From Pigmentiphaga sp. (GTDB lineage: Bacteria; Pseudomonadota; Gammaproteobacteria; Burkholderiales; Burkholderiaceae_B), in contig JBEBXA010000002.1 in assembly GCA_040391825.1 (NCBI GenBank), positions 5,097 through 69,096 on the forward strand: a stretch of DNA of 64,000 nucleotides. Direction: 5' to 3'. This document shows positions 53,295 through 64,000 of this stretch, piece by piece. Every line of letters starts with the position of its first letter. Position 1 is the first letter of the stretch. The position numbers and the translations under genes are program-made. The notes beneath the pieces are model-generated. The model had not been told where the DNA came from, searched no databases, and worked only from the letters and a program-made list of their open reading frames with translations.

Positions 53295-54290
53295 CTATTT
53301 GACCCGGAAGCTTTCGCGTACACCTGCTTCATCCACCACTTTTCTCCAGCGAACGATCTCTGAACGGATAAAGTCATCGGTTTTGTCTGCATCCATCCAT
53401 TTGGCGTGAGCGCCTGTCTTGCCGAATTGTTCGATGATTGCCGGTTCGCTCAAAATCTTCTTCATCGTTTGACTGAGCTTGTCAACAATGGGCTTCGGCG
53501 TACCGGCAGGAGCAAGCAAGGCAAGCCATGCATAGGCAACGATGTCGGGAAAGCCCAGTTCGGCATAGGTAGGTACGTCGGGAAAAAGCGGCAGGCGCTT
53601 ATCTGACGTCACAGCAAGAGGTCTCAGCTTTCCAGCATTGATAAGCTGCATGACGGCGGGAAGGCTTTCGACACTGATGTCGGTATGTCCGGCGATAAGG
53701 TCAGCGACAGATTCGGCCGAACCTTTGTATGGCACCTTTATCGTTCGTATCCCTGCCTGCCATTGAAAGAGCTCGCCTACCAAATGAGGAATCCCGCCCA
53801 CCGTCGGTACGGCAAACCGCACCTGACCCGGGTTCTTCTTAGCGTAGGAAAGCAGTTCGGTAGCCGTTTTGTACGGGGTGCTGTTGTTGGTCAACATCGC
53901 CATTTCATAATGGCCGACATAGGAAATGGCGGAAAAATCCTTGACGGGATCAAACCCTATATCGTCGAAGAAAGGCAGGGCCGTCGCCAAAGGACCTGAG
54001 GGGCTTAACAGCAAGGTGTAGCCATCGTTCTTCGCTTTGGCCGCATGGCTCGTTCCTATCATTCCGCCGGCGCCGGGACGGTTGACGACCACGAAGGTTT
54101 GCCCCAATTCGGTTGTCAGGCGGGCAGCTACGATACGGGTAATATTATCGCTCGCCCCACCCGGGGGATAAGCGGAGATTATGCGCACCGAGCGTTCAGG
54201 CCAAGAGTCGGCGCTAGCTTGTACGGCGAACGTACAGGCCACACCAAGAAACGTCAGGAAACCAGTCATCCATCGCAAATTTTTCATCAC
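53295..54290 (-). CDS. Bug/TctC substrate-binding protein
   Basis: YPPGGASD, VVNRPGAGG, KVPYKGS, PDVPTY. Confidence 0.92.
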   Translation of the reverse strand: MMKNLRWMTGFLTFLGVACTFAVQASADSWPERSVRIISAYPPGGASDNITRIVAARLTTELGQTFVVVNRPGAGGMIGTSHAAKAKNDGYTLLLSPSGPLATALPFFDDIGFDPVKDFSAISYVGHYEMAMLTNNSTPYKTATELLSYAKKNPGQVRFAVPTVGGIPHLVGELFQWQAGIRTIKVPYKGSAESVADLIAGHTDISVESLPAVMQLINAGKLRPLAVTSDKRLPLFPDVPTYAELGFPDIVAYAWLALLAPAGTPKPIVDKLSQTMKKILSEPAIIEQFGKTGAHAKWMDADKTDDFIRSEIVRWRKVVDEAGVRESFRVK

Positions 54291-54321: not shown

Positions 54322-55182
54322 TTATTTGAGACGCATCAATCGCAAGGCGTTTTCGGATAGCACCTTGTCAATCACGCCGGGACGCCAGGGCCAGGACTTG
54401 TACGCCTGGATCATTTGAGGAAAGGGCTTAGAGGGATAATTGCTGCCGAACAGCGCGCGGTCCGACAGAAAATTATTGGCAAGCTTGAAATACTCGCCCG
54501 ACCCCGGAATTTCCGGCGCCATATACAAGTCGGGCGATAACCACACATTGCTGCAATGGAAAGCAACGCCGATCATTTCCATTACCCAGGGGTAACCCGC
54601 ATGCGCAACATGGATGTCCAGCTTGGGGAAAGCCGTAGCCAAATCGTAAATCTGAGTTGGATTACTTAGCTCATACGGACGTCCCGTAGTCTTCTGCAAG
54701 ACCCCGCTAAGCGTGATGCTGACTGGCACATTACGCTGCTGACATGCTTCGTAAATCGGATAGAGCCGTATGTCGGTCACCAGCTTGATATCCGGGTTTA
54801 GACTGATCGTGGGCTCTATGCAAATGCCGCGAAAACCCGCATGCGCGAGGCAACTATCCATCTCGGCCAACCACTGCTCAGGGCCTTGGCTCAGATCCAG
54901 CCCTGCCCAGGCCACAAAGCGGTCAGGATGTGCGTCCAGCAGCTCTTTTATTTCTTTGTTGGAAATAATGCCGAAAGGCGGCGGCGATTGGCGGCCCATC
55001 AATACGCCGTATTGCATATCGACGGCATCCATCTCCTCTAACAGCAATGGTAAGGAAGCTTGTCTCGCGGACTCTGCGCGCGGATAGTCGGGGTGGCGAG
55101 TTTGCTCCACCCCGCCCGGTTGAAACAATACTGATGACTTGAGGCTAGGAATGGGCGGACGCAGCCTCATATCGACTACCAT
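54322..55182 (-). CDS. Amidohydrolase_2 family protein with atypical metal motifs
   Basis: TIM-barrel pattern (RFVAWAG, YPIYEAC..NVPV, HVAHAGYPW, NVWLSPD, LFGSNYP). DMRLRPP replaces DxHxH. Confidence 0.82.
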   Translation of the reverse strand: MVVDMRLRPPIPSLKSSVLFQPGGVEQTRHPDYPRAESARQASLPLLLEEMDAVDMQYGVLMGRQSPPPFGIISNKEIKELLDAHPDRFVAWAGLDLSQGPEQWLAEMDSCLAHAGFRGICIEPTISLNPDIKLVTDIRLYPIYEACQQRNVPVSITLSGVLQKTTGRPYELSNPTQIYDLATAFPKLDIHVAHAGYPWVMEMIGVAFHCSNVWLSPDLYMAPEIPGSGEYFKLANNFLSDRALFGSNYPSKPFPQMIQAYKSWPWRPGVIDKVLSENALRLMRLK

Positions 55183-55422: not shown

Positions 55423-56352
55423 ATGGAACTTCGTCACCTGCGCTATTTCATAGCTGTCGCGGAAGAGCTGCATATGGGGCGCGCCGCGCAGCGGCTGCAT
55501 ATATCCCAGCCGCCTCTAAGTCAGCAGATCGCTGCCCTTGAGGCCGAGATCGGCACGCAACTTTTCATTCGAAGAGGCCGGGGCATACATCTAAGCGCCG
55601 CGGGCAGCGCCTTTCTTGAACATGCGCGCAGTACGCTCGCAATGTCCGAACAGGCGGTGCAAGTGGCACGCGAAGTAGGGCGCGGCGAAACCGGCCACCT
55701 TTCAGTCGCTTACGTCAGCTCGCTGGCCTACACCTATCTGCCGCACATCCTCAAACAGTTCCAGCTTGAGTACCCTGCGGTGCAGTTGGAATTGCGCGAA
55801 ATGAGTGTGGTGGACCAGGTGCGCGCTCTGCAAGAGCGCAGCCTGCAAGTGGGTGTCTTGCGCGGCCCCCTCGACAACCAAGGCATAGATCTCAACGAGT
55901 TGATATCCGAACCCTTTGTGCTGGCCCTACCCGTGCAACATCGCCTGGCGGCGCATACCGTGCTGCCTATTGCCGCCCTTCGCGAGGAAGCCTTTATCGT
56001 GCACCTGAGGGGAGTGTTTTATGCTCCCCTGCTCGAGCTATGCCGACAAGTGGGTTTCGAACCCAAGGTAGTGCAAGAGGTTACTCAAATACACGCTGCC
56101 GTCGGTTTGGTCGGTGCTGGCGTAGGGGTAGCGTTGGTTCCCGCCTCGGCACGTGCCTTGAGAATGGAAGGCGTCACGTTCAGAGAAATCGACAACACAA
56201 CCATCACCACCAGTATTCTGGCAGCCACGCCTGCGGGAGATACCTCGCCATTAACTCGGAACTTTTATACGGTTGCAATGCGCGCCGTCAAAGAAGCAAG
56301 CAAATCGCTACTGTATGGTGCTGCTGAACCCCGGGAAGAAGTTTGCGTATAA
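55423..56352 (+). CDS. LysR-family regulator (BenM/CatM/HcaR-like)
   Basis: MELRHLRYFIAVAEELHMGRAAQRLHISQPPLSQQI; GVGVALVP. Confidence 0.95.
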   Translation: MELRHLRYFIAVAEELHMGRAAQRLHISQPPLSQQIAALEAEIGTQLFIRRGRGIHLSAAGSAFLEHARSTLAMSEQAVQVAREVGRGETGHLSVAYVSSLAYTYLPHILKQFQLEYPAVQLELREMSVVDQVRALQERSLQVGVLRGPLDNQGIDLNELISEPFVLALPVQHRLAAHTVLPIAALREEAFIVHLRGVFYAPLLELCRQVGFEPKVVQEVTQIHAAVGLVGAGVGVALVPASARALRMEGVTFREIDNTTITTSILAATPAGDTSPLTRNFYTVAMRAVKEASKSLLYGAAEPREEVCV

Positions 56353-56403: not shown

Positions 56404-57717
56404 CTAAACAGGGGGAAGCGGAGCAAAGCGGGACAGCAGCTTCCGCAAGCCCATCGGATCCTCATGCAGTCTCAGCGCCTGGTTTACCCACTGAAGATCG
56501 GCACTGTCTCCCAAGACCCGACGGGCCTTGTCCAGCAGTTGCAGCTCGTCGTAAGGCAGGGCGGGATCACCCGGGCTGTTTTCCACCAGAATTTCCTGCC
56601 GCCTGCCCCCAGCCTGTACGCATAAGCGGGCCGGCCAGCTACGCGGGTAATACGAATCCAGCGCCGGATCTGCGTAAATGCGGATGCTCTGAGACAAGGC
56701 CTGCACAGCCTGGCTGCGGGGAGGAACTTCCCGCGCCACATCGTCAAGCGCAGTTGGCGCAAGCGCGGCCAGCGCCAACTGCCAGCGGGCGCTGACCATA
56801 CTCGCCAAACGGCTCGCGCAAGCGGGTTCACGATCTATCATGCTGCTATAAGCAGCAGGCACGCCCAGCTCTATGAATTCGATTTTTTCCGGATCCAGGC
56901 CGCCAGCAATCAGGCTGCGCATACCGTGGATGGCAGCCAGCACCTGCTTGGCCGCACAATGCGGCTTGATGCTCAATTGTTCGATAACGGCGCTGTTGCC
57001 GGCGACTACCTCAGGCGCCAACTCAGGCACGCCCGTAGCGCGCAGCCAAGTTGGATTGAGAATAGAGACGTCGCCATCAAAACTATCCGCAGCAGCCAAG
57101 GCGGAGAGACAGCCCGCGCGCACCGCATTGCCGAACAAAAGCCAACGACCGGGACGCGACCCCGAACTCTTGCCTATCACACGCGGAGTTTGCGCCAGCG
57201 CCAAAGCCAGGGCATGCGCCATGCGCTCTGGGTTCAGGCCCAATAAGCGCCCCGTGGCAGCGGCCGCACCAACCGGCGCCACCACATAGCTTGGCCAGAT
57301 TCCAGCCCCAAGCAAGCCCGCTCCGCCCAGGGCCTGCGCAATGCGGACGGCAATCTCTTGGCCGACAAACACAGCGTCCAGAAAATGATCGGCAGCAAGC
57401 GGACCAGCGCCATGGGCCACCATGCCCAGCGCTGCCGGCAGCACGATGGCCGTAGCAGTGACGGCAGTAGGCCGATGAATATCATCTATTTCGGTCAAAC
57501 GCATCGTCGCGGCATTGCGGGCAACGGCCCCCAAGGCGGAACTATCGTTGCGCCCCAAAAACGCCTGAAGCGCCCGGCCTTCGGCAGTGCGAGCGCCTGC
57601 CATCAGCGCCAGCACGCCATCGGCCGCATGTAACATCAAGCGGTCGCGATACGCCGCCCCCGATGCACAGGCGGCCAGGTGTGCCAGTTCGTCCAGCGTA
57701 AGCGTGGACACCATCAA
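56404..57717 (-). CDS. MmgE/PrpD family protein (degenerate motifs)
   Basis: DGVLALMAG, EIDDIH, VLPAAL, GAAAATGRLLGL, IKPHC, GDPALP. Confidence 0.82.
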   Translation of the reverse strand: MMVSTLTLDELAHLAACASGAAYRDRLMLHAADGVLALMAGARTAEGRALQAFLGRNDSSALGAVARNAATMRLTEIDDIHRPTAVTATAIVLPAALGMVAHGAGPLAADHFLDAVFVGQEIAVRIAQALGGAGLLGAGIWPSYVVAPVGAAAATGRLLGLNPERMAHALALALAQTPRVIGKSSGSRPGRWLLFGNAVRAGCLSALAAADSFDGDVSILNPTWLRATGVPELAPEVVAGNSAVIEQLSIKPHCAAKQVLAAIHGMRSLIAGGLDPEKIEFIELGVPAAYSSMIDREPACASRLASMVSARWQLALAALAPTALDDVAREVPPRSQAVQALSQSIRIYADPALDSYYPRSWPARLCVQAGGRRQEILVENSPGDPALPYDELQLLDKARRVLGDSADLQWVNQALRLHEDPMGLRKLLSRFAPLPPV

Positions 57718-58787
57718 GGACTCAACACTTCAGCCCTGCCACCCATGGCGGTGAGCAAAGGCAAACTACGGTGCCAGGCCCCGCCCGGAAAATCCAACTG
57801 CGCCGACAGCACGGCCAAGCTACCTGGAGGCAAGGAGGTCCACGACGCTCTGTCGCTTGCGGCAACCACCGCCAGCGGCGCCATACCGACGCTGGCTTCC
57901 AGCGTCCAGCGCGACAAGCTGCCTGGTGCTCGGGCCAGCACATCGCTTTGCACGCCGCCAGTGGTAATGCCTTGCGCCATCTCCAGAAACCAGTCTTGCG
58001 CGACTGTCCAGTCGGACGGGACAGCGACGCTGGACCGGCTTTCAGCCACCCTGACCCATGCCCCCTTATAGGCGACCGAAATTTCGATGGCGTATTGCTC
58101 GCCCAAGACCGCGTCGCCTTCCATGCGCACCAAGGTAGCGTCTTGGACTAGATTGGGCGCTATCCTTTGCAAGACTTCTTCCGCACCGGCCAAACGCGCG
58201 GAAAGCTCTACCGCGGCCAGTACCTCAGAGGCCCTACGAGCACGCTCGGGTATCGCCCGCAACGCGCGGGCGCCTATGGCGCTTGCCTGACGAGCAAGCG
58301 TCAACTCCGCCTGATCACAGGGTTGGCGCAAACCGGAAAAAATCTCGCTAGCATCTACCAGGCGTTCGCCTACCCCCTGCTTTAGCAGCGGCAACATGAC
58401 CGAAGATGGCACCTCATCCAAGCCGACAATGCCAATCTTGCCCTCGGTAACATGCTCTTCGATAAAGGACAGCGCGCCCGCACCAAGGCGCGGAGCGGCT
58501 ATCACCTGACTCAGGTGCGACACCTCGCGAATCCAGGGATAAACGCGCTTGGTCAAGGCTGCCAGCAATTGCGGCCTTCCTTCCGGCAAAACCACCAATA
58601 GCGCTTCGCTCCAATAGGGAACGAAATTACATAGCCAATGCACGGCAGCCGGTTGGATGAAAGAGGTGTAGGCGAACACAGCGCCTATGCCTTGCTTGCG
58701 CATTGCTTCCTGCAAACGACCTACCCGGCCATCCAAGACTGCAACCGGGACTTCTTCGCGCGACCAACTGATGAGTCCACGACGCAT
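57714..58787 (-). CDS. M24/creatinase-fold protein lacking metal ligands
   Basis: MRRGLISW start; creatinase-N-like RVGRLQEAMRKQGIGAVF..WLCNFVPYW; C-terminal domain without the D/D/H/E/E set. Confidence 0.72.
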   Translation of the reverse strand: MRRGLISWSREEVPVAVLDGRVGRLQEAMRKQGIGAVFAYTSFIQPAAVHWLCNFVPYWSEALLVVLPEGRPQLLAALTKRVYPWIREVSHLSQVIAAPRLGAGALSFIEEHVTEGKIGIVGLDEVPSSVMLPLLKQGVGERLVDASEIFSGLRQPCDQAELTLARQASAIGARALRAIPERARRASEVLAAVELSARLAGAEEVLQRIAPNLVQDATLVRMEGDAVLGEQYAIEISVAYKGAWVRVAESRSSVAVPSDWTVAQDWFLEMAQGITTGGVQSDVLARAPGSLSRWTLEASVGMAPLAVVAASDRASWTSLPPGSLAVLSAQLDFPGGAWHRSLPLLTAMGGRAEVLSP

Positions 58788-58822
58788 GATTCAAGCTCCT
58801 AGAAACCCGCAACGGCAGCTGC

Positions 58823-59926
58823 TCATAGCGGCACCGTAAATAGTTCTCGCGGCGTGCGCGTCAGCACCCGACACCCCTCTTGCGTCACCCGCACCGTATC
58901 GCCCAAGACGATGTAGCCGGCCACCGGATGATAGGTGTTCGGGTGAACGATCAAGGTCATGTCCGGCTCCAGTACCAGATCCACGTCTTCCAGTACATGC
59001 GGGCCATCGACGAACAAGCCGACACCATGGCCACGTACCCGTGTGTATTCCGACGTGATGTATTCGGCCAGGCCATGCCTGCGAAAAACATCGTTTTCAG
59101 CGCGGGCGATATCGCCATGGGTAGCGCCCGGTTTAACGGCATCGATCCCTGCTTCCAGCGCTTCGAGGTATATCGCATGCGCCTGCAGCTGTGCCTCGGA
59201 TGGCGGCCCCATCACCAGCGTCCGGCATATTTGGGCGTAATAGCCGTCAAGGCAAGGCGTCAGTTCGGTGGTGACTAGATCACCTTTCGTTAAGCGGCGC
59301 TCGGTAGGTGGGCGCATGCCACGCAACTCCGGCCCGCCGGACCCCATGATCATGAAATTTTCCGGACAAGCTTGAGAGCGGAACCAGGCCTCGGTGTCGG
59401 CGATCAGTTCGTACTCGCGCCGTCCCACCTGCGCGGCGGCACGAAAAATTTCGTAACCCTCGTCTGCCAGCTTGACCGCGCGTTCTACCGCGTCGGCCTC
59501 GGCCGTGGATTTACGCACCATCAGTTGATCAAGCATGGCAGTGGTGCGCGCCAAGCTTCCCCCCAACTCGCCTCGGCCCAAGCGCCAAGGCACTGCCGAA
59601 GACGGCGCCAAACCCACATTACGGGTAGTGGCGGACTTGAGCTCGGCCTCGACATAGTCGAGCAGAACCGGCGACCAATCGACATCCAATTGGGGTTGCT
59701 CCGCGGCGATACGTGCGGCCTCGACCGGCGTCTCGACAATCAGGCGCACCCTGCCGTCGAGAGGAATCAAGGCAATCGCCACACCTTCCATCGGGGTAAC
59801 GTCGATGGCATATCTCAAGTAATCGCTGCGCCAGCCGTTGCCCGCCAGCACCAGCAGATCAAGGCCTGCGTCGGACATGGCCCGACGCAGGCGCGTCATG
59901 CGTTCATCACGTAGCGCAGCACTCAT
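58823..59926 (-). CDS. M24 (Xaa-Pro peptidase/creatinase) fold protein with altered active site
   Basis: Creatinase-N domain, VRKSTAE, GDLVTTELTP..GYYAQICRT, RGHGVGL, HPN, GDTVRVT. ATG 59926 overlaps the stop of the upstream gene. Confidence 0.85.
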   Translation of the reverse strand: MSAALRDERMTRLRRAMSDAGLDLLVLAGNGWRSDYLRYAIDVTPMEGVAIALIPLDGRVRLIVETPVEAARIAAEQPQLDVDWSPVLLDYVEAELKSATTRNVGLAPSSAVPWRLGRGELGGSLARTTAMLDQLMVRKSTAEADAVERAVKLADEGYEIFRAAAQVGRREYELIADTEAWFRSQACPENFMIMGSGGPELRGMRPPTERRLTKGDLVTTELTPCLDGYYAQICRTLVMGPPSEAQLQAHAIYLEALEAGIDAVKPGATHGDIARAENDVFRRHGLAEYITSEYTRVRGHGVGLFVDGPHVLEDVDLVLEPDMTLIVHPNTYHPVAGYIVLGDTVRVTQEGCRVLTRTPRELFTVPL

Positions 59927-61665
59927 GATGACAGTTCCTCCTCTTGTTCGACGGCCCAACCGTAGTCTCTGGCCGCGCCTTCCGAGGTAACGTAGCCGTC
60001 ACGCAGGTCTTCTCGGATAGCTTGTGGCGAGCGTGCTTGCGGATCTCCATAGCCTCCGCCTCCCGCAGTCCAAAACGCCACGGTATCGCCCGCCGACACC
60101 ACGATATTGCTTTCCTTGGTCACCGAGCGCTCGGTGCCGTCCAGGCGGCGAATCCTGGCGGCGTTGCTGCGCCCGTTTTTGCCGCCCTCCAATCCCCAAG
60201 GCGGCTGGGTAATGCGTTCAAGGTTGACGTTGACTGAACTACGCTCGAGCGCGCGGTAGCGCAACTCGACGCCCAGACCTCCGCGGTTGCGGCCGGGGCC
60301 GCCGCTGTCTTCGCGCAGCTTGTGACATTCGACCAGAAAGGGGTAATGGATTTCCTGCAACTCTACCGGCGTATTGCGCACATCCCCCTGGCAGATGGAC
60401 ACAGAAGCCGACGCACCGTCCTCGCTTGATCTGCCGCCCCAGCCACCGCCAAAGATATTCATCAACACATAGCGCGCGCCGGTATCTTCCCGGTTGCCGT
60501 AGAAGGAGCATCCGCCCATGTCCCCCTTATGCGCCGCGGGTATCACACCCGGCAAAGCAGACGCCAAGGCACACAGGATGGTGTCGATGACGGTGGGCAA
60601 GGCAATGCTCCACAAACCCAGCGCAGCAGGCGGCCGGGCGTTGAGCATGGTCCCCTCGGGAGAGATCAGGGTCAGGGCGCGAAAGCCGCCTTCATTGACC
60701 GGGGCATGGGGCATGGTCAGGCATTTGAACGCCACCCGCGCCGCCGACAAGCCTCCAGAGAAACCTGAGTTCAGCGGTCCGGGCACCTGCTCGTTCATTT
60801 CCGAGTAGTCGATCGTAAGATCCGAGCCGCTCACCACCACCGTCACCTTGACGCGCAGCGGCACATCCAGCCGGCGGCCATCGCTGTCAAGCCAGGTTTC
60901 CGCCGTATAGCGACCATCGGGCATTTTGGCGACGACTGCACGGGCCTCTGCTTCCGCCATGTCCCAGGATGCGGCGATGCAGGCATCGACGGTCTGTACC
61001 GAGTGACGGGAAAGCAGTTCTGACAACCTGCGTTCGCCCAAGTGGCAGGAAGCGATCTGGGCACGCAAATCGCCCAGCGACGCATCCGGAAAGCGGATGT
61101 TATCGGTAATCATCTGCCAGACGCCGTCATTGCGCTTACCGGCATCGTAGATCTTGATCGAGCGCATCTGAATGCCTTCGTGGAAGATCTCTGTGGTCTG
61201 CACGTTGCCAAAACCGGTGCGCAGGCCACCCACATCGACCCAATGAGCACGGTTGGCGGCAAATGCCACGACCTTGCCTTCGTGGAAGCATGGCGTATAG
61301 ACAACCACGTTATTCAAATGCTGCCCGCATACACCGGCGTGGTTCATGATGATGACGTCGCCGGGTGCGAAGCCATCCAAGCCGAAACGATCGATACCAT
61401 CCTGCACGGCGATGCCCAGGTCGGCCAGGAAAATCGGCAAGCCTCCCGCGTTCTGGCAGATCATCCGGCCCTGGGTATCGATCAGCCCGCAGCAGAAATC
61501 GCGCACTTCGTAGATCATCATGTTGTAGGCGGATTTGCACAGTGCGAGCGCCATTTCATCCGCATACGCAAGTAGTGAATTCGTCACCACTTCCAACGTT
61601 ATGGGATTCACCTGGACGCCGCTGGCGCCGGGCGGATTCGTTGTTTGCTGCGTGATCGGGTTCAA
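59923..61665 (-). CDS. Hydantoinase B / 5-oxoprolinase subunit
   Basis: TTG 61665 after AAGGAG. ITLEVV, RDFCCG, AHWVDVGG, EGIQMR, GGGWGG, NTPVE, DSGGPGRNRGG, TAGGGGYGDP. Confidence 0.93.
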   Translation of the reverse strand: MNPITQQTTNPPGASGVQVNPITLEVVTNSLLAYADEMALALCKSAYNMMIYEVRDFCCGLIDTQGRMICQNAGGLPIFLADLGIAVQDGIDRFGLDGFAPGDVIIMNHAGVCGQHLNNVVVYTPCFHEGKVVAFAANRAHWVDVGGLRTGFGNVQTTEIFHEGIQMRSIKIYDAGKRNDGVWQMITDNIRFPDASLGDLRAQIASCHLGERRLSELLSRHSVQTVDACIAASWDMAEAEARAVVAKMPDGRYTAETWLDSDGRRLDVPLRVKVTVVVSGSDLTIDYSEMNEQVPGPLNSGFSGGLSAARVAFKCLTMPHAPVNEGGFRALTLISPEGTMLNARPPAALGLWSIALPTVIDTILCALASALPGVIPAAHKGDMGGCSFYGNREDTGARYVLMNIFGGGWGGRSSEDGASASVSICQGDVRNTPVELQEIHYPFLVECHKLREDSGGPGRNRGGLGVELRYRALERSSVNVNLERITQPPWGLEGGKNGRSNAARIRRLDGTERSVTKESNIVVSAGDTVAFWTAGGGGYGDPQARSPQAIREDLRDGYVTSEGAARDYGWAVEQEEELSS

Positions 61666-61675
61666 TCCGTTCTCC

Positions 61676-63730
61676 TTAGGCCAGCTTGATGGAAATGACG
61701 ATGTGTCCGTGCTCAGTGACACGAGCACGATCGCCAGGAAACACCACGGTCGTGGAGTTAGGCTCTTCGATGACCGCCGGCCCCTCAAAGGTAAAGCCGG
61801 GCGCCAAGCTGGGCCGCCACAAAATTCTTGCGTCCACCGGGTGCTCGGGATCTTCGTAAACGACCTTGCGCATCTGCTCGGGACGGGGTGCTTCCGGCAC
61901 AAAGGGCTCAGACAAGAAAGCTTCGATGCTGGTGCCTTCGCGCGCCAGGCTGACGGTCAAACGCAGGTTGGCGACCTCTATCGATTCGCCCACCGCGGCA
62001 TGTCCATAGCGCATGTCGTGCAAGGCATCAAAAGTGGCCCGCACGGTTTCGTCGCCATTGGTCAAAGAGGTCAAGCTGGGCAAAGGCACGGGAATACTGT
62101 GTTCTTGCCCGCGATAGCGCAAATCAGCAAAGTATTCGAATACGGCTTTTTCCGCATCCAGATCGTCTTCGGCCATCTGACGACGCGCCGAATCAGCCAG
62201 TTCGTCGAAAGCGGCATGAACCCGTTGCGCGTCCAGCTTGCCCAGCTCACCGACAAAAGTGCGGACCAGATCATGCCGCCAAGGCGCCAACAACATGCCA
62301 AGCGCGGAAAAATTCCCCGGAAGCTTTGGAATAACCAGGGTGGGAATATAGATTTCCTTGCACAGTGCAGCCGCGTGGACAGGACCCGCGCCGCCGAAAG
62401 CTATCATCACCGCATCGCGGGGATCCACGCCCTTGCGAACCGAGACGGCTCGCACCGCTAGAGCCATTGAGGAATCAGCAATACGCACCACGCCTGCCGC
62501 AGCTTCAACCGTCGACAGGGAAAGCGGATCTGCAATTTGCTTTGCCATCGCGGCTACCGCACCTGCAGTATCGAGGTTCATGCCGCCGCCCAGAAAGCGG
62601 TTGGCATTCAAACGACCCAACAGCAGATTGGCATCGGTAACTGTTGGCTCCTGCCCGCCACGGCCATAGCACACCGGCCCGGGTGCGGCGCCCGCGCTCT
62701 GAGGACCGACATGCAAGCCGCCACTGCCATCGCGCCACGCAATACTGCCGCCGCCCGCCCCGACTTCGACAATCGACACCACCGGTAACTGCATAGGCTG
62801 CCCGGTGGAATAGCCGCCGATGTAATAGCCCTCTTCAATTGCCGGCACACCATCGATGATCAAGGTCGCCTTGGCGGTCGTACCACCCATGTCGAAACCT
62901 ATGGCTTGCGGCATGTTCAACAGCTTTGCAACGTAACCGGCGCCTATCATGCCGGCGACAGGGCCTGATTCCATCATGGAAACCGGTTCGATCGCTGCGT
63001 GCTTGAGCGACATGCTGCCGCCGTTGGAACGCATGATCTGGATAGCGCCGCCAAAACCGCTGCTGCCCAGATGCGACTCCAGGCTTTGCAGATAGCTGCG
63101 CACACGCGGCCCGACATAGGCGTTGAGGACAGTGGTGGAAGTACGTTCGTACTCGCGGAATTCGCGCAGGATCTCGTGCGACAAAGTCACGAACAAACTC
63201 GGAAATGCTTCGCGCAAGATCCGCCCCGCGATGATTTCATGAGCAGGATTGGCATAAGAATGCAGGAAGCACACCGCCACCGATTCAATTTTGTCGTCCA
63301 TCAACTTTTGGCCCAGCGCCAGCACGCCGGCCTCATCGATAGGCGTCAACACTTCGCCTTTCGCATTGAGCCGTTCCTTGACTTCGAAGCGAAGCCGACG
63401 CGGCACCAGGGGCTGGGGCCGCTTGAAATTGATGTCGAAGGCATCCGGCCGATTGCCTCGGCCGATTTCGTAGACGTCGCGAAAGCCCTCTGTAGTCAAC
63501 AATGCAGTGGCTGCACCCTTGCATTCCAATACGGTGTTGATCGCCATCGTTGAACCATGCAGGAACTCATCGAGTTCGCTCAAGCGGACATCCGCCAGTT
63601 CAAATGCGCTTGCCACCCCGGCAGTCGGATCGGCAGCTTGGGTCAGTGTTTTTGAAAACACCAGCTCACCGTCCCGGTATCCGACCAAATCGGTAAACGT
63701 GCCGCCGATATCCACACCGATAGAATTCAC
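61676..63730 (-). CDS. Hydantoinase A / 5-oxoprolinase ATP-binding subunit
   Basis: GVDIGGTFTD, HGST, REYERTSTT, ESGPVAG, FDMGGTT, GAGGGSIA, SAGAAPGPVCYG, FGGAGPVH. Confidence 0.95.
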   Translation of the reverse strand: MNSIGVDIGGTFTDLVGYRDGELVFSKTLTQAADPTAGVASAFELADVRLSELDEFLHGSTMAINTVLECKGAATALLTTEGFRDVYEIGRGNRPDAFDINFKRPQPLVPRRLRFEVKERLNAKGEVLTPIDEAGVLALGQKLMDDKIESVAVCFLHSYANPAHEIIAGRILREAFPSLFVTLSHEILREFREYERTSTTVLNAYVGPRVRSYLQSLESHLGSSGFGGAIQIMRSNGGSMSLKHAAIEPVSMMESGPVAGMIGAGYVAKLLNMPQAIGFDMGGTTAKATLIIDGVPAIEEGYYIGGYSTGQPMQLPVVSIVEVGAGGGSIAWRDGSGGLHVGPQSAGAAPGPVCYGRGGQEPTVTDANLLLGRLNANRFLGGGMNLDTAGAVAAMAKQIADPLSLSTVEAAAGVVRIADSSMALAVRAVSVRKGVDPRDAVMIAFGGAGPVHAAALCKEIYIPTLVIPKLPGNFSALGMLLAPWRHDLVRTFVGELGKLDAQRVHAAFDELADSARRQMAEDDLDAEKAVFEYFADLRYRGQEHSIPVPLPSLTSLTNGDETVRATFDALHDMRYGHAAVGESIEVANLRLTVSLAREGTSIEAFLSEPFVPEAPRPEQMRKVVYEDPEHPVDARILWRPSLAPGFTFEGPAVIEEPNSTTVVFPGDRARVTEHGHIVISIKLA

Positions 63731-63748: not shown

Positions 63749-64000
63749 TTATTCGATCTTGATGCCCGTGCGCTCGATCAGCTCTTTGAATTTGGCTGAT
63801 TCGGCACGCACGAATGAAGTGGTTTCAGCCGGCCCGAGATCGGTCGCCACATGGCCGATCTGTGCCAGTTTTTCCTGAATGGCGGGGTCCTTCAGCACGG
63901 CATGGACTTCACTGCCCAGCCGCGCAATGATTTGGGGGTCGGTGCCTTTGGGCGCCGCCAATACCCACCAGTTCGCAAACAAGAGCTGGGGAAACCCAGC
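63749..64000 (-). CDS. Bug/TctC substrate-binding protein, C-terminal part (5' end beyond the window)
   Basis: WWVLAAPKGTDPQIIARL..KFKELIERTGIKIE, a typical Bug C-terminus. Confidence 0.85.
   Translation of the reverse strand, partial: AGFPQLLFANWWVLAAPKGTDPQIIARLGSEVHAVLKDPAIQEKLAQIGHVATDLGPAETTSFVRAESAKFKELIERTGIKIE

Follow-up and report, generated by a model that had tools for sequence, protein, structure and literature searches.

A remodelled M24 protein and its ligand-free paralogue in a Pigmentiphaga operon: a candidate heteromeric non-peptidase hydrolase

Proteins of the M24 'pita-bread' fold are routinely annotated as Xaa-Pro peptidases, and so is every public name seen in the present work. 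The 64,000-nucleotide stretch of Pigmentiphaga sp. DNA analysed here (contig JBEBXA010000002.1, positions 5,097 to 69,096, referred to below as the window) carries two adjacent genes for such proteins, called A and B, and the question is whether they encode a peptidase at all or the two parts of a different enzyme. A sequence-only reading of the locus had suggested the latter, i.e. a catalytic and a structural subunit acting together on a small C-N substrate under a peptidase label given by automated annotation. As far as the label is concerned this was correct, since the public annotations of A are 'Xaa-Pro dipeptidase/aminopeptidase' or 'M24 family metallopeptidase'; those of B are 'hypothetical' or 'aminopeptidase P family N-terminal domain-containing protein'. 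The metal site of A was found to be rewired in an invariant manner and the two genes to occur always together. We propose, with moderate confidence in the mechanism taken as a whole, that A and B form an obligate heteromeric non-peptidase hydrolase of the M24B family. The two genes are the following:

58823..59926, minus strand: M24 protein A, 367 amino acids, presumed catalytic subunit, with the remodelled site E221/Q232/H300/H328/G342
57714..58787, minus strand: M24 protein B, 357 amino acids, presumed partner subunit, with a two-domain M24B fold without metal ligands

The metal site of protein A

Protein A matches Pfam Peptidase_M24 (PF00557) with an E value of 2.4e-32. Its best sequence matches in the PDB are prolidases (3q6d at E 7e-29), while the similarity to creatinase is modest (E 5.5e-18). 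Both A and B show the two-domain M24B architecture, a Creatinase_N domain followed by the pita-bread domain, and their AlphaFold2 models have predicted local distance difference test (pLDDT) values of 88-89. In Foldseek comparisons the fold of A matched PepE and prolidases with template modelling (TM) scores of 0.7-0.78, and creatinase structures were among the best matches.

The ligand positions of A were mapped by HMMER alignment to the Pyrococcus furiosus prolidase 1pv9 and other solved prolidases, with the following result:

ancestral Asp 1: A residue E221, motif TELTP
ancestral Asp 2: A residue Q232, motif YAQICRT
ancestral His: A residue H300, motif GHGVG
ancestral Glu 1: A residue H328, motif VHPN
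ancestral Glu 2 (bridging): A residue G342, motif LGDT

Only the His is retained, and the other four metal ligands are replaced. The alignment returned exactly the motifs that had been read from the sequence before, and an intact binuclear ligand set is present neither in A nor in B. Conservation was evaluated in 68 A/B pairs taken from Beta- and Alphaproteobacterial genomes. Since E221, Q232, H300, H328 and G342 are all invariant in 68/68 A orthologues, the site is a product neither of chance nor of decay. Further positions of A with 100% invariance are M204, C234, R235, the run Y294-T-R-V-R-G-H-G301 and N330.

At the MB site the prolidase residues D, D, E have become E, Q, G, and this site is effectively gone. 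At the MA site D, H, E, E have become Q, H, H, G, and two His are kept. Since both bridging ligands were lost (D to Q and E to G), no binuclear centre can form in A. Judged from the residue pattern a mononuclear site with E221 nearby is plausible, and a metal-free mechanism is plausible too; the invariant E/H/H could hold one metal, so that the site need not be metal-free. The loop 297-310, which carries H300, is the sole low-confidence region of the A monomer model, and this fits a site that would become ordered only by the partner, a metal or the substrate.

The position 17 residues before the first ligand, which corresponds to His243 of EcPepP and to the 'PHG' His of prolidases, is Met204 in 68/68 A sequences, and the residue following it is variable (H, R, T or A). 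In EcPepP, mutating the Asp ligands or His243 abolishes the activity (PMC10377022). All the equivalog models of NCBIfam compared with A gave scores far below their cut-offs: 92.9 vs 630 for PepQ_Arch, 72.4 vs 393 for PRK09795 and 25.8 vs 465 for the PepP model PRK10879. The same applies to the ectoine hydrolase DoeA/EutD models (48.3 vs 613 for TIGR02993, 44.6 vs 575 for NF038259) and to the model of the dimethylsulfoniopropionate lyase DddP (NF043017, 15.8 vs 600). The replaced ligands, the Met at the His243 position and the low scores together make the loss of the peptidase machinery well supported, and they lend indirect support to the earlier claim that A is not a canonical Xaa-Pro peptidase.

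Protein B and its obligate pairing with A

The only Pfam match of B is Creatinase_N (E 1.9e-6); B alone had no match by sequence in the PDB and none in NCBIfam. The sequence-only reading had B keeping the creatinase-N domain and none of the ligands. The second half of this statement stands, the first one was too narrow. The AlphaFold2 model of B (pLDDT 88.9, predicted TM score 0.86) matched both domains of prolidases, creatinase, DoeA and DddP in Foldseek, with TM scores of 0.7-0.76 and E values down to 1e-16. When the family profiles were compared by hhalign, residues 11-272 of B aligned onto residues 5-263 of A with a probability of 94.5%, an E value of 8e-8 and 18% identity. According to the models and profiles B is complete as an M24B protein, though highly diverged as a paralogue. 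Of the two Asp positions the first is occupied by E235, a residue that varies across the family, and the second by the invariant R246; no His is conserved in B over the 68 pairs, so that B lacks a ligand set.

The invariant residues of B cluster at its extreme N-terminus (M1 R2 R3 G4 L5, where R3 is kept in 67/68) and in an FxPYW loop (P57, Y58, W59). The best match of the B N-domain profile is the creatinase N-domain (E 0.0028), and in the N-domain alignment the invariant FxPYW aligns to the FGRPY loop of creatinase; in creatinase this loop supplies the site of the other subunit with Phe62 and Arg64. The possibility that B is a decaying pseudogene was ruled out, the gene being intact, with 35-64% identity across two proteobacterial classes and a confident model.

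In order to count the adjacency from both sides, genomes were scanned with the B profile (one genome per species, 162 loci) and metagenome contigs with A-specific motifs. Where sufficient upstream sequence was available in the genomes, A was found directly upstream of B on the same strand in 70/70 loci; a first count gave 67/70, and the three loci which initially appeared to lack the upstream A turned out to be overlap or frameshift artefacts. In the metagenomes B was directly downstream of A in 70/70 loci found through A. Altogether 140/140 informative loci have the order A then B. The pairwise identities among the A proteins correlate with those among the B proteins (r = 0.92 over the 68 pairs), the nearest neighbour is the identical locus for A and B in 50/68 cases, and 45/65 bipartitions are common to the A tree and the B tree. 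The trees are congruent and point to the inheritance of A and B together as a unit. Adjacency on each side, translational coupling (described with the operon below) and tree congruence agree on the sequence level in showing the obligate pairing, which is well supported; they lend indirect support to the proposal that A and B are one functional unit. The obligate co-occurrence and co-evolution characteristic of catalytic/degenerate paralogue heteromers such as the mitochondrial processing peptidase (MPP) are thereby found for A-B as well.

The family is large: searching 1.84 billion representatives with the B profile gave approx. 175 clusters (50% identity) at E <= 1e-30, and the loci seen numbered 162 in genomes and more than 560 in metagenomes. 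Cultured carriers of the pair are Paraburkholderia caffeinilytica, Ramlibacter aurantiacus, Pigmentiphaga kullae and P. humi. A 776-amino-acid open reading frame (ORF) in one locus (L028) was considered as a possible A-B fusion and ruled out, as it is an extended B frame only. In another locus (L023:1766-2922) the A gene matches in two frames (residues 17-269 and 257-366), which reflects either a frameshift or a fault in the assembly.

Two diverged A-B units in different contexts were found within one genome in Ramlibacter aurantiacus and in a Burkholderiaceae metagenome-assembled genome (MAG), which suggests that the pair was duplicated as a unit and then specialised on different substrates. 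In R. aurantiacus AW1 the two units (L024 and L044) lie on one contig; the MAG carries L021 and L036. The paired copies within these genomes are 63% identical for A and 49-56% for B, and their architectures are HyuAB-A-B-PrpD and LysR|A-B-TctC-TauD-PGA_cap.

Operon structure and genomic context

In the window A and B belong to a tightly packed operon on the minus strand, in the order TctC/Bug, HyuA, HyuB, A, B, MmgE/PrpD-like. Its features and those adjoining it are listed here:

63749..64000, minus strand: TctC/Bug periplasmic binding-protein gene, 3' part; first operon gene, an open-ended ORF cut by the window end
61676..63730, minus strand: HyuA-like alpha subunit of an ATP-dependent hydantoinase/lactamase (Pfam Hydant_A_N, Hydantoinase_A, Hydant_A_C)
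59923..61665, minus strand: HyuB-like beta subunit (Pfam Hydantoinase_B, E 3e-156); start codon uncertain, near 61665
58788..58822, minus strand: A-B spacer of 35 nucleotides, with an AGGAG ribosome-binding site 8 nucleotides ahead of the B start
56404..57717, minus strand: MmgE/PrpD-family protein (Pfam match); its start overlaps the B stop (TTGATG)
55423..56352, plus strand: LysR-type regulator (Pfam HTH_1, LysR_substrate), adjoining the operon on the opposite strand
54322..55182, minus strand: Amidohydro_2 (PF04909) enzyme by Pfam, a recurring accessory gene
53295..54290, minus strand: second TctC/Bug binding protein (Pfam TctC, E 1e-70)

The ATG start of A and the stop of HyuB overlap as ATGA, and the start of A is preceded by the ribosome-binding site GAGGAGGA. 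The ribosome-binding sites and the start/stop overlaps indicate translational coupling at the HyuB/A, A/B and B/PrpD junctions. The longest ORF of HyuB (59923-61902) would encode 659 amino acids from a TTG at 61902 and would overlap HyuA by approx. 225 nucleotides, and its Pfam match starts only at residue 99; the true start is probably near 61665, where there is no ATG. In relatives the HyuB start overlaps HyuA by 4 nucleotides.

The best NCBIfam models of HyuA and HyuB are the caprolactamase alpha (479 bits) and beta (289 bits) subunits, both far below the equivalog cut-off of 1000 bits. HyuAB resembles CapAB, OplAB and N-methylhydantoinase, which open stable cyclic amides by ATP-dependent hydrolysis, and no M24 partner for these systems is described in the papers found.

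In the relatives a TctC gene stands ahead of HyuA at the matching position, a LysR gene is recurrent beside the cluster, and in some loci Amidohydro_2 follows PrpD directly. The whole block LysR | TctC-HyuA-HyuB-A-B-PrpD-(Amidohydro_2) | TctC recurs in Paraburkholderia caffeinilytica, Ramlibacter aurantiacus and several MAGs. HyuAB was directly upstream of the pair in 33/60 genome loci; in metagenome loci the gene directly upstream was HyuB in 12/46 and TctC in 28/46. In 18/70 genome loci the pair is followed downstream by a PrpD-like gene of the same strand. A TauD-family dioxygenase was found near the pair in 16/47 and Amidohydro_2 in 14/47 of the long genome loci. Other architectures consist of TctC-A-B alone in a housekeeping neighbourhood, of LysR | A-B-TctC-TauD-PGA_cap-2-hydroxyacid dehydrogenase in Pigmentiphaga, and of TRAP-TauD-HyuAB-A-B with a Rieske oxygenase and an amidase in Rhodospirillales.

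No HyuAB lies within 6-9 kb of the pair in many of the genomes and in the majority of metagenome loci. The idea that A and B are obligate HyuAB subunits was therefore ruled out, and since roughly one half of the loci are without HyuAB, A-B works independently of it. As far as gene content tells, A-B is an autonomous catalytic module joined to different accessory enzymes by lineage. When the neighbours were clustered as raw ORFs, shadow ORFs of the high-GC DNA obscured the picture. In targeted tblastn and Pfam scans the accessory genes proved to vary (TauD, Amidohydro_2, PGA_cap, Rieske, amidase, thiamine pyrophosphate enzyme), and they do not add up to any one known pathway. The context nevertheless supports small-molecule catabolism and not proteolysis. 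Indirectly, the TctC, HyuAB, PrpD-like, Amidohydro_2 and LysR genes around the pair bear out the catabolic role that the sequence-only reading had assumed.

Two further observations concern the accessory genes. A TauD/TfdA-family 2-oxoglutarate dioxygenase beside the pair spans three otherwise differing architectures (examples are L004:7640-10076, L069:3101-3934, L063:3991-4845 and L001:2418-3530), and in the Pigmentiphaga-type loci the PGA_cap protein always accompanies TauD. In the soil Betaproteobacterial TctC-A-B clade an ORF of 196 amino acids (L085:10086-10676) begins on the stop codon of B. It belongs to no Pfam family (best match E 0.03) and could be a third component of this version of the module.

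Proposed mechanism, comparison and alternatives

In the mechanism we propose, A and B would assemble as an alpha-beta unit or a multiple thereof in the two-domain architecture of creatinase and prolidases. The pita-bread domain of A would be the only catalytic centre, its ancestral binuclear D-D-H-E-E set rebuilt as E221-Q232-H300-H328-G342. This site probably holds one metal at MA (through His300 and His328 plus Glu221 or Gln232), or it may be metal-free, and it would be surrounded by an Arg-rich shell of R183, R235, R282, R296 and R298. The pita-bread pocket of B would be catalytically degenerate, and the N-domain of B, with its MRRGL tail and FxPYW loop, is predicted to insert into the open pita-bread of A and to complete the substrate tunnel. 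The putative substrate is no peptide but a small nitrogen compound, anionic and with a carboxylate group, which would be taken up through the TctC/tripartite tricarboxylate transporter (TTT) system and hydrolysed at a C-N bond. At this locus the coupled, ATP-dependent ring-opening amidase HyuAB probably makes the A-B substrate from a cyclic amide, imide or ureide. The PrpD-like and Amidohydro_2 enzymes would belong to the same cluster, under LysR control.

What is observed is the fold, the invariant residue pattern, the obligate pairing of the two genes and their context; that A and B form a heteromer, that B acts as a cap, which metal state and bond type apply and in which order the steps run, we infer from these. 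In the M24B dimer the N-domain of one subunit enters the active site of the other, and this embrace is found in DddP, creatinase and prolidases (PMC4108388). In the 68 pairs the conservation of A is 0.55 in the N-domain and 0.76 in the C-domain, that of B 0.62 and 0.51, respectively. By analogy with the known dimers this complementary distribution is the pattern expected of an asymmetric M24B dimer. All five Arg residues of the shell in A are invariant, as are R2, R21, R81, R198, R221 and R246 in B. The many invariant Arg residues and the constant TctC-type association suggest that the substrate is anionic and carboxylate-bearing.

Prolidase/PepQ, PepE and YpdF/aminopeptidase P (3q6d, 1pv9, 1wy2, 4ege) have the same Creatinase_N and pita-bread domains and are the best matches in sequence and fold, and their dimer embrace serves as the model for A-B. 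They are, however, encoded by one gene and form homodimers with the binuclear D,D,H,E,E site and the essential His, whereas here there are two genes whose products share 18% identity, A reads E,Q,H,H,G with Met at the His243 position, and B is ligand-free. Creatinase (creatine amidinohydrolase; 1chm, 1kp0, 7yto) also has the two-domain fold and is a non-peptidase C-N hydrolase without a binuclear centre, but it is homodimeric. We take its residues at the ligand positions to be N, A, H, E, H, as compared with E, Q, H, H, G in A, and its catalytic His232 presumably stands at the position aligned to Met204, so that A would be without that His. DoeA/EutD and DddP are likewise non-peptidase M24 enzymes, in which the pita-bread fold serves C-N or C-S chemistry on small molecules, and they too belong to catabolic clusters. 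In DddP the partner N-domain shapes the active-site tunnel, and six invariant metal ligands form a binuclear Fe site (PMC4108388). This ligand set is absent from A and B, and DddP and DoeA are homodimeric. In its presumed working mode A-B is closest to creatinase, DoeA and DddP, yet the DoeA, DddP and peptidase equivalog scores are below the cut-offs.

A degenerate paralogue beside a catalytic one is known from MPP alpha/beta (M16) and from PID-5/APP-1 of C. elegans (M24B). In pairs of active and degenerate paralogues the degenerate member contributes to function (PMC11266112). In PID-5 the Asp ligands are replaced by Asn or Gln and the bridging Glu by Gly, and a heterodimer of PID-5 with APP-1 has been predicted (PMC10377022). 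These systems are eukaryotic and act on peptides or proteins, whereas A-B is bacterial, co-transcribed and found in small-molecule catabolic operons, and here the binuclear site is gone from the 'active' subunit as well. A review of pseudopeptidases from 2024 has EBP1 as its sole M24 entry (PMC11266112). No publication on a bacterial M24 pair of this kind was found in full-text searches on M24 heterodimers, hydantoinase-creatinase/PrpD clusters and creatinase active-site residues.

Several points weigh against the heteromeric hydrolase as proposed. The degenerate pocket of B holds the invariant residues R198, E203, R221, Y240, K241 and R246, and E297 at 96%; it may be a second catalytic or regulatory site and not a dead one, in which case B would not be purely structural. 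The M24 fold can be catalytic without metal, as in creatinase. No A-B fusion of approx. 720 amino acids was found among the best 150 relatives of the B profile in the 1.84 billion representatives. The accessory genes vary (HyuAB, TauD, PGA_cap, Rieske oxygenase, amidase), and the bond type and the substrate are assigned by analogy and context only. The first three of these points, together with creatinase being among the best fold matches, would also favour the explanation that A and B are separate homodimeric enzymes for consecutive pathway steps, A using the remodelled, possibly mononuclear, metal site and B being metal-free like creatinase, so that their linkage would reflect pathway coupling. 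We regard this as possible, although rather unlikely: the B pocket is without a conserved His or any other evident general base, the C-domain of B is its less conserved half (0.51 vs 0.62), which is the opposite of A and of what is expected of a catalytic domain, and the fixed A-then-B order in 140/140 loci across very different contexts is stricter than usual for consecutive enzymes.

That A is still a peptidase or dipeptidase, acting for example on a dipeptide made linear when HyuAB opens its cyclic form, with an unusual metal site and B as a pseudoenzyme partner, would agree with prolidases being its nearest sequences and structures (3q6d at E 7e-29; PepE and prolidases at TM 0.7-0.78) and with the Xaa-Pro peptidase names in public annotations. 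Both bridging ligands are gone, however, so that no binuclear centre can form, and the His243 equivalent is Met, while the Asp-ligand or His243 mutants of EcPepP are inactive (PMC10377022). Uptake would be through TctC-type carboxylate binding proteins, not peptide transporters, and the neighbours are PrpD-like, Amidohydro_2 and TauD genes, not genes of peptide metabolism; this explanation is accordingly improbable in our view. The most improbable of all is that A and B serve a larger HyuAB complex as accessory or scaffold subunits without catalysis of their own, comparable to the extra subunits of acetone/acetophenone carboxylase. The order HyuA-HyuB-A-B with its overlapping stops and starts, and HyuAB lying directly upstream in 33/60 genome loci, would fit it. 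The many genomes and most metagenome loci with the pair and no HyuAB within 6-9 kb do not, and neither does the active-site region of A, which is its most conserved part and contains an invariant polar constellation typical of catalysis.

Within the heteromeric hydrolase reading a more specific version can be put forward tentatively, although we think it unlikely to be right in full. In this version A-B would be a new heterodimeric M24 class with a mononuclear site of the 2-His-1-carboxylate type (H300, H328, E221), completed by the MRRGL and FxPYW elements of the partner. It would act by cleaving di- or tricarboxylate derivatives of the amide, ureido or amidino kind, e.g. citryl-type amides; where HyuAB is present, the substrate would be the product of the ATP-driven opening of a cyclic imide or lactam. 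Such a class would mean an unrecognised, widespread catabolic route in soil and freshwater, and the LysR regulator beside the cluster could serve as a biosensor for the substrate. If the A-B heterodimer is true, it would be, as far as the searches show, the first bacterial heteromeric M24B enzyme and an example of a binuclear site rebuilt while a degenerate paralogue was kept as partner. The A-B family is large, lacks the peptidase machinery and always comprises two genes, and its present names point to a systematic mis-annotation.

As for the origin of the window, DNA near-identical to 57714-59926 was found in four insect-metagenome DNA runs of one study (word share 0.67-0.93) and nowhere else. 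No RNA runs containing the window DNA were found, the matches being insect-metagenome DNA runs only, and the window probably belongs to a Burkholderiales genome associated with insects.

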